This document shows, in pieces, positions 51,655-56,429 of a stretch of DNA of 64,000 bases. The position numbers were made by a program, and so were the translations under genes. Source of the stretch: Mobula hypostoma (Eukaryota); assembly GCF_963921235.1 (NCBI RefSeq), contig NC_086097.1, positions 96,784,001-96,848,000 on the forward strand, written 5' to 3'. The notes under the pieces were generated by a model. The model worked only from the letters and a program-made list of their open reading frames with translations, was not told where the DNA came from and did no database searches. Position 1 is the first letter of the stretch; the number at the start of each line of letters is the position of its first letter.

Positions 51655-51898
51655 TGTTATGTTTTGTAACTGTAAACCATTAAGCTAATTCAAAGGAAGA
51701 CACAGGAGTCTAAAATGCATATTTAACTTTGAGTTTCATTTAAGCGAGGCACTGCACGAATCACGTGGTAACGTGATGATGTATGCATACACGTATTTGT
51801 ACATATACCTCATTATGAATTATTTAAACAAACAAGAACACTTAATCATCCAATATATAAGAATACTAAAATATTATTGAAATATTAAATGCACAGCA
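51655..51898 (-). repeat. 3' LTR (244 bp) of the Gypsy element
   Basis: TG...CA termini; immediately preceded on the minus strand by polypurine tract AGGGGGGAG. Confidence 0.8.
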
Positions 51899-52239
51899 CT
51901 CCCCCCTGCTTAGGTATATAGTCAAACTCCATAGAGAATGTACCTCAATTATAAACACTGTATACTATTATGCAACTGCTATATACAGACATCCACAGCA
52001 TAGCAAATTTTAAATTGTCACATTCAGGTATATAAATTTAATTGCTGTGGAAGATTTCTTACTCTTCTGGGATAACATCTTTCCTGACAAGGGGGTCACT
52101 CTACTTGGCAGGAGAGACTTGTGGCTGTGAAACAATCTGGTTCTGGGGCCTCCTCCATGGAGGTTGTCGGAGTTGACTCTGAGACTGTAGGAAGTGGTTC
52201 TGATAGCTCTGGACACCTTTCTCCTCCCTTACTCTCTCC

Positions 52240-52853
52240 GGACCTACTTCAATCCTCCTTTTTTTTCTTTCTCCCATTCCTTTTCTGTTTCCCATTCACA
52301 TTCTTTCTCTCCATCTCATACCCCCCCCCCTTTATTTCTTCTTCTAGTTTGTGCATCTTGATCTTGGGAAGATACATTTAGTTCACTGGAGTATTCTCAT
52401 GAATGCTTCTATTGCTCCATTTATGATCTGATTTTTCCTGCTGCTTTCCTCATCCACAACATCATCGAATGAATCCTCTGTTTTTGTATCTACATTGACT
52501 CCTTTTTTTGGCATTCCATTCATCCAGCTGGTTTTTGTCTTTGCATCTACTTTTACAAGCAGCTTTTTGTCTCCCAGTTGAACTTCATCCAATAACCTTA
52601 ATGCACACAGGGTAAATTCTGTTCTTTATACTCACAAAATTCAATTGCTTGCAACTTTTCTGAGACTCCTTGAACTCTCTTCCAGCTGCAAACCAAACCA
52701 CATTTCATGTGTAACTGCCTAGTTGACATATCAGAGGCTTTCTCAGATATGTTACCTACAGCTTTCATCATTTTTGTGCTTCCTCTGAGCAATATAGTCC
52801 TTTCTTTGTCCCGTCTGCTTTCCAAACAGAAACAAAGAGGTTGGCACCAATGC
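52240..52853 (-). pseudogene. RBM25: Intron-less RBM25 fragment (RRM and start of RE-rich region), frameshifted retrocopy inside Gypsy
   Basis: ALVPT..GKQTGQRKD..NDESC/VGNISEKASDMSTRQLHMKCGLVCSWKRVQGVSEKLQAIEFCEYKE/EFTLCALRLLDEVQLGDKKLLVKVDAKTK/QLDEW..NQIINGAIE../EYSSELN is collinear with vertebrate RBM25. Confidence 0.93.
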
Positions 52854-53469
52854 CTATTTGTCTTCTGTTGGGCAACAGTTCATGGTGCTTGGCATGGAGA
52901 CTATTGTGGCTTCATCCAGTACCTTACTTAATTCACTTTCAGTTGACTTTATTGTAGGGGATGTGGCATGAACATATTGAATGGATCTCCAATCAAGTTG
53001 CAGTTGTCTCAGCCAATCATGCTCCACAATGTTGGTCCTTCTGTTTTTACCACGTACAAGCTCAATGTGGCTTGCTGGCTGTTTTATTTCATAGTTATGA
53101 ATGTCATTCCCACAGGAGATATCTTTTCTCCAGTATGTTTTTAATTGAATATCTTCAGACTTCAGTTTGGTATCTTTGAAATGACATTCAAACTATTTTG
53201 TGGAATGACTAAAACAGCTGAGCCTGTGTGCAAGGAACACAAGATCTGTGTTGCTTGGATTCCAGCACCTGCAGATTTTCTCTTGTTTGTGAGTCAGTGT
53301 CCAATTTTAATTAACTTGCTGTTCACTTCTGGTGTAAGCGATATTGCTTGCCTATTACTAATTTTCAAACAGTAAATCTCAAGGCCACACAGTCCTGTGT
53401 CACTGCATCCTTACCAGTTTTTTTTCATCAGTAGCATGCAGATTAGTGCTGGTTTTGAAACTACAATAT

Positions 53470-53937
53470 GAGATTTACAAGGATGTTGTCTGGGTTGGAG
53501 AGCATGCCTTATGAGAATAAGTTGAGTGAACTCGGCCTTTTCTCCTGAGAGCGATGGAGGACGAGAACTAACCTGTTAGAGGTGTATATGATGGTGAGAG
53601 GCATTGACCACGTGGATAGTCAGAGGCTTTTTCCCAGAACTGAAATGGCTAACATGAGAGGGCACAGTTTTAAGGTGCTTGGAAGTAGGTACAGATGAGA
53701 TGTGAGGGGTAAGTTTTTTTTTACACAGAGTAGTGAGTGCGTGGAATGGGTTGCCGGTGACGGTAGTGGAGGCAGATACAATAGGGTCTTTTAAGAGACT
53801 CCCGGATCGGTACATGGAGCTTAGAAAAATAGAGGTTTCTGGGTAACCCTCGGTAATTTCTAAAGTAAGTACATGTTCAGCACAGCATTGTGGGCTGAAG
53901 GGCCTGTATTGTGTTGTAGATTTTCTATGTTTCTATG
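53470..53937 (+). mobile_element. CR1 3' fragment nested in Gypsy gag
   Basis: Same 3' end as 30130-30595; (ttctatg)n tail. Confidence 0.88.
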
Positions 53938-54249
53938 ACTTATTATCTTTTTCTTCTTCCTGTGCAGACCATTGACTTTTGTCTGCCTGACGTGCTCTTT
54001 GTATATGAACTATTTTGTTGCATTCCTTGCAAGTTTTGCTTTAAATCTGCATTGGTTTGGTGTATGTGAGCCCCTGCTACAATGGTAACACAGTTTGTTC
54101 AGCCAGGCAGGTTTCTGTTTAGACACTGCAATTTTGTTCACACTCACTTTTATTCTTGACTGCAACTCAATTTTATCTCTTTATGTAGTTTCCATTGAAA
54201 CATCAATTTCAACTGCTCTCTTAAATGCAAGTTGTGCTTCAGTTAGGAG

Positions 54250-56173
54250 CATAGTTCCCTCTAAGCTGTGCGCGTGCACACACACACATTTTTCAACCAG
54301 CGCACAAAGGAAATTAATGTGCGCACAAGAGGTTAGTTACCTAAAATAATGTGGTAGTTAATAATTATACTTATTGAAAATAATCTTTTACATAACTATT
54401 TCTGTTAACTGGTTTGTCGGTTTTTCAAATACCACAATGCATGTCACTAATGAACGTAACCTCACCTATCCTGTTCCGGTTTGTACAGCTGTATCACGGC
54501 GGCAGCCATGTTTGGCAGACAGTGTTCATATCATAAAGTTTACAAAGATCTGTTTCAAATCCTTTCGATAGCTTACTAAGTTTTTATTGGAAAAAATATT
54601 GATTCACTATGTCAAATTCAAAAGAAGCAAAGGGCGTGAAGTGCAAAAGAACTGCAAATTTGTTTGAAGTTGAATGGCTTAACAAAATAGTAGAAACTGT
54701 TACACTGGAAGCTCATGAGGTCATGAATGTTCAGCTACGAGAAATATTTATGTATGATTCAGAAACTGGAGTTATCTGTTTGTATTGTCGTGATGAGAAA
54801 GTTGCTGGAGAATTTGCTAGTGGAAAGAAATGGGTTGATATTTGGAAGTTTGACTTTTTGAAGCATCATTTGGCAAGTAAGTCGCATTTGGATAGTGTGC
54901 AAAAGCTCAGGCAACAGAACCCATCATTACGCATTACCCATTATAGGAGAACATGTTACAATTGAGTGCAAATGGGCGAGAGCAAAAATGATCAAACCCA
55001 GAGGAGATCAAAATTGAGGTACAAGAATGGTCAGCTTTTGATTTCTCCGCAATTGCAGATTGTGACTTCACATTTGGCAATAAACAAGTTTATGCCTTAT
55101 GTCTAAAATATCATGATTTTCTAGCTGAAAATATTGTAATAGTTAGACAGTTCCATGATTTCAAATTTTCCGTGCAAGAAAAAATTAAATCCAAACCGAT
55201 TTCAAGCTTTGCTCAAATGGTGGCATTTGTACTTCAAAATGAATAGTTTTGCAACCTTGCACAGTTGATGGACATTGGGGGAACCTTTCTTGCGTCTAGT
55301 GCGGACTGCGATTGAGGTTTTAGCTTAATGAATCAACTCAAAAACAAGCTGAGAAACCATTTAGGTGAATGCCATTCGGACATGTTAATGAGAATCAAAA
55401 GCTATCAATGGGATAGAAGTTCTATGAGTCGAGATAGAGTTTACAAAGAATGAGTAGATGCCAAAGACAGGAGAGAGAAAAAAATAACTGAGTGACTTAA
55501 ATATGATAAAAATTAAATATCTCCAACCTGATGGCATGAAAATGGATTTCTCTAACTTCTGCTAATGCCCCTCCTCCCCTTATCCCATTTCTTATTTATT
55601 TATTTATTTATTTATTATTCCCCCCCCCTTTTTTTTCTCTCTCTCTCTGTCCTTCTCACAATCACTTCTTGCCTGCTCTCCATCTTCCTCTGGGCTCCCC
55701 TCCCACTTTCTTTCTCCCTAGGCTTCCCGTCCCATGATCCTCCCCCTTCTCCAGCTCTGTATCCCCTTTGCCAATCAACTTTCCAGCTCTTGGCTCCATC
55801 CCTCCCCCTCCTGTCTTCTCCTATCATTTCGGATCTCCCCCTCCCCCTCCCCCTCCCCATCCCACTTTCAAATCTCTTACTATCTCTTCTTTCAGTTAGT
55901 CCTGACGAAGGGTCTCAGCCCAAAATGTCGACTGTACCTCTTCTTATAGATGCTGCCTAGCCTCCTATGTTCACCAGCATTTTGTGTGAGTGTGACTTAA
56001 GTATGTATGTTATTTTGTTGTTATTCTGTGCAGTTTTATATCAGACTATTTGTAAACCTACATAAACTGTCCCATGTGTGCATTCAGTGCGCACATCTTT
56101 TGTCACAGGAAAAAAATTTGCACAACCTAAGATTTTTGCGCACACTGACTACTAAAAATTAGAGGGAACATTG
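54250..56173 (+). mobile_element. hAT DNA transposon (internally deleted), 15-bp TIR, 8-bp TSD gttaggag
   Basis: TIRs catagttccctctaa / ttagagggaacattg; TSD at 54242-54249 and 56174-56181; N-terminal zinc finger (ICLYCR..LKHHLASKSH, 54609-54965) and dimerisation motif ASSADC..GFSLMNQLKNKLRN near 55290-55400. Confidence 0.92.
55501..55991 (+). mobile_element. Penelope-like 3' fragment nested in hAT, with decayed hammerhead motif (55897-55934)
   Basis: SLQPDGM.MDFSNF-like end, pyrimidine-rich pLTR, tagtcCTGACGAagggtctcagcccAAAAtgtcgactg; flanked by gtgacttaa duplication. Confidence 0.8.
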
Positions 56174-56429
56174 GTTAGGAGCCATTTTTGATTGCTTTCC
56201 TTTAAGATTCCACAAACTAAATGATATCTTAGCATATAATTAAGCCTAATACCGAATTAATAATGCTCAATCTCTTCAATTCAGCCACATTTGCCAAAAA
56301 GGACTCCTCTTCATTTTGATTCTGTTTCTGAAACCTAAAGCATTCTGCGCAGGATCAACAGTGGCTTTGATTCAAAGCAAACAGTATGTCTTTATACCCA
56401 ATGCACCTAGCAAAATCGGTACTCATTTC

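Follow-up and report, generated by a model that had tools for sequence, protein, structure and literature searches.

Spliced RBM25 mRNA sequence in place of RT, RNase H and integrase in a probably non-autonomous Gypsy family of Mobula hypostoma

Results

Structure of the chimeric copy

The 64-kb stretch of Mobula hypostoma DNA analysed here (the window) contains a decayed Gypsy copy in which spliced RBM25 sequence stands in place of reverse transcriptase (RT), RNase H and integrase. We think it quite probable that this copy belongs to a non-autonomous Gypsy family that arose by a single capture, through two microhomology-guided template switches, and was then copied in trans, with RBM25 probably carried as a passenger. 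The family has a spliced cargo with joints at both ends, an in-frame gag-protease-RBM25 fusion at the family level, LTRs, three deletion subfamilies and at least 709 copies, and it is decayed today. The original prediction, made from the window copy, overlooked this amplified non-autonomous family and its deletion subfamilies.

The window copy runs along the minus strand from a protease tail through RBM25-like sequence to the C-terminal tail of integrase, a polypurine tract and an LTR; reading that strand directly and aligning it to the host gene bore out the predicted order of the first three elements. The RBM25 segment is real but had been taken for about 600 bp ending at 52240, and it is in fact 694 bp long (52911-52218, minus strand). 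Upstream of it, a decayed 5' part of gag (56174-56429, minus strand) aligns to sister copies and to residues 43-108 of the carp Gypsy protein P0121, and gag continues through its zinc-knuckle region at 53936-54250 (minus strand, by sister alignment; zf-CCHC reached E 0.001 in sister L008, below the cut-off). Collinearity of gag is interrupted by a later insertion of ~1.9 kb (54252-56173) whose ends, read directly, are inverted and which has an 8-bp target duplication; we take it to be hAT-like, and its 120-aa open frame had no Pfam match. A further later insertion (53467-53935, plus strand), absent from the sister copies, is the 3' end of a dispersed repeat (window repeat family D1/D11) and presumably a CR1-like LINE. 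The gag-protease spacer, the protease and the protease-RT linker occupy 52912-53466 (minus strand, by sister alignment); the window copy has a short insertion at ~53290-53234 within this segment, and an RVP domain is present in sister L003. On the other side of the RBM25 insert, and likewise on the minus strand, lie the integrase C-terminal tail with the 3' untranslated part (51911-52217, from sequence reading and sister comparison), the polypurine tract (51899-51910, at the same position in sister L075) and a 244-bp 3' LTR with TG...CA ends (51655-51898). No 5' LTR of this copy and no tRNA genes were found within the window. Another Gypsy gag-protease remnant lies at ~90-1246 of the window on the minus strand, with 61% and 38% identity to segments of P0121.

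Host gene and captured exons

The host RBM25 gene was located with an RBM25 C-terminal protein query at 99.84-99.81 Mb of G000:C1, on the same contig as the window and ~3 Mb from it. A PWI family search was abandoned as a route to the gene, having matched only non-RBM25 exons, which we assume to be SRRM1-like. A second PWI-domain exon (L023, C2:244677884-244678039) resembles one on C76 and is possibly a paralog or a fragment.

Nine relevant host exons have AG/GT borders, and all introns are GT-AG. Against these, the window copy contains the last 10 nt of exon 3 and exons B (48 nt), C, D, E and F, which cover the pre-RRM region, the RRM and the segment that follows (52332-52910, minus strand), mapped as ex3 52910-52902, B 52901-52854, C 52853-52706, D 52705-52648, E 52647-52491 and F 52490-52332. 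There follow, at 52227-52331 on the minus strand, a remnant of exon H in two pieces and the start of exon I, with the H/I junction at 52238/52237 and exon G deleted. Six host exon junctions are crossed (ex3/B, B/C, C/D, D/E, E/F and H/I), and introns of 5.8, 3.4, 1.7, 2.8, 4.8 and 1.1 kb are missing. The segment had been described as intron-free, and the alignment, which spans eight exons with zero intron sequence, agrees; the collinearity with RBM25 claimed alongside holds through exon F but not for the RE-rich piece, where exon G and most of exon H are deleted. Identity to the host RBM25 core is 84.9% over 576 aligned bases. The tryptophan codon at 52991, the TAG at 52856-52854 and the alanine codon at 52853 do share one frame, as had been stated, and the TAG corresponds to the host CAG that ends exon B. 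A 1-nt loss at host position ~638 shifts the frame of the RE-rich piece; the copy is decayed, as proposed, but this loss is not private to it, since 21 of 39 medium and 32 of 51 short copies (subfamilies described below) have it too.

Sister copies have open frames that match RBM25 proteins (E down to 1e-80) and RRM_1, and the closest named protein to these frames is sevengill shark RBM25. Exon B (L031, G000:C1:99832586-99832633) carries two in-frame Met codons; it is present in shark proteins and absent from the bony-fish, frog and bird proteins compared, and the sevengill shark isoforms open with it, their annotated start lying there. Because exon B occurs in shark isoforms and a protein assembled in a public database (P0247) runs ex3-B-C, the donor was a real spliced isoform. 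The captured stretch in full corresponds to host positions 41-1112, or ~1.07 kb of spliced RBM25 mRNA.

Amplification and age

The original prediction had suggested looking for sister copies, and the same insert was found in many hundreds. With the insert as query, all 40 scored candidates besides itself matched, at 74-82% identity; among 19 sister loci examined, the tail was present in every one and the protease side in 18. A 22-mer over the D/E junction found 709 sites at no more than one mismatch (control 0), which, scaled by the match rates in sampled copies, gives estimates of 1,630, 2,260 or 2,970 copies. The hybrid thus occupies at least 700 genomic places, and probably about 2,000. A second estimate, from a protease-tail pattern, was discarded as unusable, with only 3 of 156 sampled copies matching it. 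One locus, L004 (C96:22421461-22425165), has a tandem duplication of the protease tail and RBM25 core, and its second unit is closely like L007 on the same contig.

The 22-mer list also supplied 87 non-redundant copies (90 fetched, three duplicates dropped). Gypsy sequence flanks the insert on at least one side in 84 of these and on both in 53; by class, 39 are short, 18 long, 14 medium and 16 unclassed. A protease-tail motif has 290 exact sites; of the first 100, counted by eye, 29 led into RBM25, 68 into RT and three were unclear, so that chimeras make up about 29% of the family members that keep the protease tail. Two LTRs were found in 23 of 156 copies (many loci being too short), with a median K2P of 0.22, and a 5-bp target duplication agreed at 4-5 of 5 positions in 5 of 15 scored copies. 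Many dispersed copies lacking RT and integrase, target duplications and the presence of a helper together mark this as a non-autonomous family.

Copies diverge from the commonest letter of each column by 9-10% outside CpG. Shark substitution rates are slow, and on such rates we infer an age of roughly 100 million years or more. The copies have host-lineage residues that are missing in the sevengill shark and keep one ancestral residue that has changed in the host, which points to a capture that was likely later than the split from the sevengill shark. The 5' joint is spanned by contigs from two other organisms (X8 records 31 and 32; X13 record 15), and a short-type joint occurs in X1, X5 and X8; that these contigs represent RNA is our guess. 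The family is unreported in the literature searched, with Repbase/Dfam and most subscription journals lying outside that search.

Parent element, joints and origin

With a carp Gypsy RT segment as query, the search yielded 150 scored matches; of the loci fetched, 27 of 30 align to the gag-protease of the chimera, and near-full pol is present in 5 of 20 further fetched loci (L216, L221, L222, L229 and L232). The domain order of P0121 is collinear with these near-full relatives and gives the parent order protease-RT-RNaseH-integrase; we presume that the parent belongs to a Mag-like clade. Comparison with the parent Gypsy, which the original prediction had also proposed, places ~2.4-2.7 kb of RT-RNaseH-integrase between the joint sites in RT-bearing L216, L221 and L222, and gives microhomologies of 7 and 9 nt. 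The internal ORFs are replaced, not interrupted, by the RBM25 cargo.

At the 5' joint (52905-52911, minus strand) the parent linker and the end of exon 3 are exactly alike over 7 nt (TGCCACA) and at 10 of 12 positions overall, in the same codon phase, so that the joint is in frame. A 9-nt microhomology first assigned here was cut to 7, as position 8 differs in most RT-bearing copies. At the 3' joint (52218-52226, minus strand) 9 nt, GAGAAGAAA, are common to exon I and the integrase tail, with one change in the window copy. With random breakpoints the chance of such joints is P 6e-4 for at least 7 nt and P 7e-5 for at least 9 nt. The 5' breakpoint falls at host position 41-50 in 62 of the 87 pattern-sampled copies. 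Splice-mediated 5' capture was ruled out because the joint falls 10 nt within exon 3 and not at an exon edge. The microhomology at both ends, judged against RT-bearing relatives, and the replacement of the pol core support the predicted double template switch onto a co-packaged RBM25 mRNA.

A different route would have a LINE make an RBM25 processed pseudogene within a Gypsy copy, deletions then removing pol, poly(A) and the target duplication. The window is rich in LINE-like repeats and the copy has taken other later insertions, as this route would have it, but it requires two deletions, each ending within the cDNA at microhomology. Inspection confirmed that the insert has neither a poly(A) tail nor a target duplication, and the segment is neither a single exon nor intron-bearing nor an insertion flanked by such marks. 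All of the longest copies stop after 28 nt of exon I, a long way from the end of the mRNA, and RT-start sequence lies near only 1 of the 87 sampled copies. We regard this route as very improbable, and a processed-pseudogene origin as largely refuted.

Capture in the manner of retroviral oncogenes would involve insertion upstream of the gene, a DNA deletion fusing the 5' half of the element to exon 3, a spliced read-through RNA and one switch restoring the 3' end. It predicts an identical final structure, and with the joint 10 nt ahead of it the exon 3 donor would be preserved. Upstream of the first mapped RBM25 exon there are indeed two solo LTRs of the family, at distances of 36 and 66 kb (G000:C1:99876650-99876890 and 99906433-99906636), but they face opposite to the strand of the gene, and the introns around exon 3 contain no LTR, gag or protease remnant. 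A DNA break would moreover be expected more often in kilobase introns than in a 50-nt exon, and the similarity at the 5' joint matches the size given for RT switches in the joint data of Tan et al. 2016 (PMC5131818). We consider this course of events quite unlikely, and prefer two switches during reverse transcription. The first joint likely formed in that process; the comparison is with the host gene as it is today, and its RE-rich exons may have altered after the capture.

The same Gypsy family has a second deletion type, in which the integrase zinc-finger region is joined to the same A/G-rich tail site as the RBM25 cargo (L049, L050, L051, L056 and L063; also L217, L224, L230 and L231). The shared use of this site suggests a switching hotspot.

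Subfamilies and recombination

At least three deletion subfamilies, long, medium and short, can be distinguished. Long copies retain exon G and host-like alleles; medium copies, which include the window copy, and short copies have the loss at ~638 and are missing more of the RE-rich end. Across 112 copies, the tail is joined from the end of exon F in 48, from exon I in 22 and from exon H in 13, with no tail in 26 and three other or unassigned; the similar site that closes exon E is used by none of the 112. In medium and short copies the gag-protease alleles form mosaics, and these alleles are seldom found in long or RT-bearing copies. Shared variants are scarcest in the cargo and grow denser with distance from it (shared-variant density 0.9% in cargo, 2.4% in tail, 3.8% in protease, 6.7% in gag and 10.9% in LTR), and among 471 alleles only six weakly linked pairs of minor cargo alleles were found. 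Repeated recombination with helper elements, by which one cargo moved between helper backgrounds, may account for this pattern.

Was the cargo functional?

The same origin could have had a further consequence: the in-frame Gag-protease-RBM25(RRM) fusion might have aided packaging or copying of its own RNA and so driven amplification. At the family level, an open frame runs from the ATG of gag into the cargo (over 433 codon columns, a stop is the commonest codon at just a single CpG-prone site beyond the ATG), and the first 200 cargo codons contain no shared frameshift. The RRM is kept in 26 of 29 loci picked by the 5' joint alone (two break right after the joint), exon G in none of them, and six high-frequency shared amino-acid changes all fall outside the RRM (P about 0.05, by hand). 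Against the host, silent differences number 19 where 12.5 are expected per lineage (P 0.05); the same comparison gives four replacing differences, three variable between subfamilies and one derived in the host. Among gag alleles enriched in chimeras of the medium and short classes, 17 are silent and 11 replacing, against a neutral fraction of 0.21 (P 6e-6).

These same derived gag alleles, however, also occur on RT-bearing L059, L213, L214 and L229, and the cargo is nearly without shared variants, silent ones included. Because the cargo lacks matching silent variants, the silent excess in gag is better read as import from selected helpers, and gag selection within the chimera itself was downgraded after the comparison with the cargo. 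The shared cargo changes are almost all replacing, and private ones look neutral (silent fraction 0.24-0.25). The 3' losses lie at A/G-rich repeats like the tail site and represent few founder events, and all but 18 of 156 copies have a private core frameshift. Of 5,555 candidates 150 were scored, and none was intact; the best has 80% identity over the full length, and most have stops. Purifying selection of the kind expected of a domesticated retrogene or a Bs1-like chimeric gene was not found. A role of the fusion in its own packaging or copying therefore seems doubtful to us, and it is likewise improbable that the retrotransposon exapted a host splicing factor's RNA-binding domain and owes to it ~30% of the family, some 2,000 copies. 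Most likely the RBM25 piece is a passenger.

Discussion

On the preferred account, an RBM25 mRNA would have been co-packaged with Gypsy RNA, and two microhomology-guided switches during reverse transcription, likely in one event, would have put ~1.07 kb of spliced RBM25 in place of ~2.5 kb of RT, RNase H and integrase. The chimera was likely copied in trans by RT-bearing relatives; its gag and LTR may have been exchanged through recurrent recombination with helper RNAs, and the cargo may have been trimmed from long to medium to short by later switching or deletion at A/G-rich repeats.

Gene captures by animal LTR elements are known mainly as young, low-copy cases, and here one capture became a major repeat family. 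That family records the aftermath of capture: a cargo lost in steps, flanks exchanged with helpers and, among the copies best preserved, no domestication seen. An ancient isoform of RBM25 mRNA survives in these copies, which could serve to date the capture in sharks and rays; in these genomes they will also mislead gene annotation and read mapping for RBM25. Should the RRM fusion have helped the element after all, it would be a rare case of transposon use of a host domain.

Defective oncogene-transducing retroviruses carry host mRNA in place of internal genes and need a helper. As in these and in the HERV-K capture of FAM8A1 (cited in PMC5131818), host mRNA here stands for internal genes and a helper is needed; unlike them, the carrier is an env-less Gypsy element, amplified in the germline to many hundreds of copies. 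Maize Bs1, as outlined in PMC13317346, is an LTR element with three captured host genes that forms a transcribed and translated chimeric gene; both elements carry host segments, whereas ours draws on a single donor, and of its copies scored none is intact. Mouse IAP 1-delta-1 has an in-frame gag-pol fusion, has lost pol, and has a cis effect demonstrated by experiment, according to the account in PMC6466679. Our family resembles it in being non-autonomous, in its in-frame fusion ORF after pol loss and in its high copy success; it differs in that gag is fused to a host gene and that the fusion here is seen as an open family-level frame.

The closest parallel is with the LTR-mediated retrocopies of Tan et al. 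2016 (PMC5131818); the mechanism is already known from that work, and what is unusual is the scale. Their retrocopies are partial spliced mRNAs replacing part of an internal ORF, with microsimilarity at both joints (median 6 bp) and an insert free of poly(A) and of target duplication; the account also proposes secondary copying as a non-autonomous element for two fly cases and describes a preferred switch-back site in one Gypsy family. The RBM25 chimera shares with them the spliced cargo, the replaced ORFs, the microsimilar joints, the insert without poly(A) or target duplication and the two LTRs around the element. The cases described there are young, with 18 sites of insertion across nine retrocopies, in a species set that, as described, includes no cartilaginous fish; the RBM25 chimera, in contrast, is old (~10% decay per copy), is present in at least 709 copies, and has deletion subfamilies and signs of recombination with helpers.
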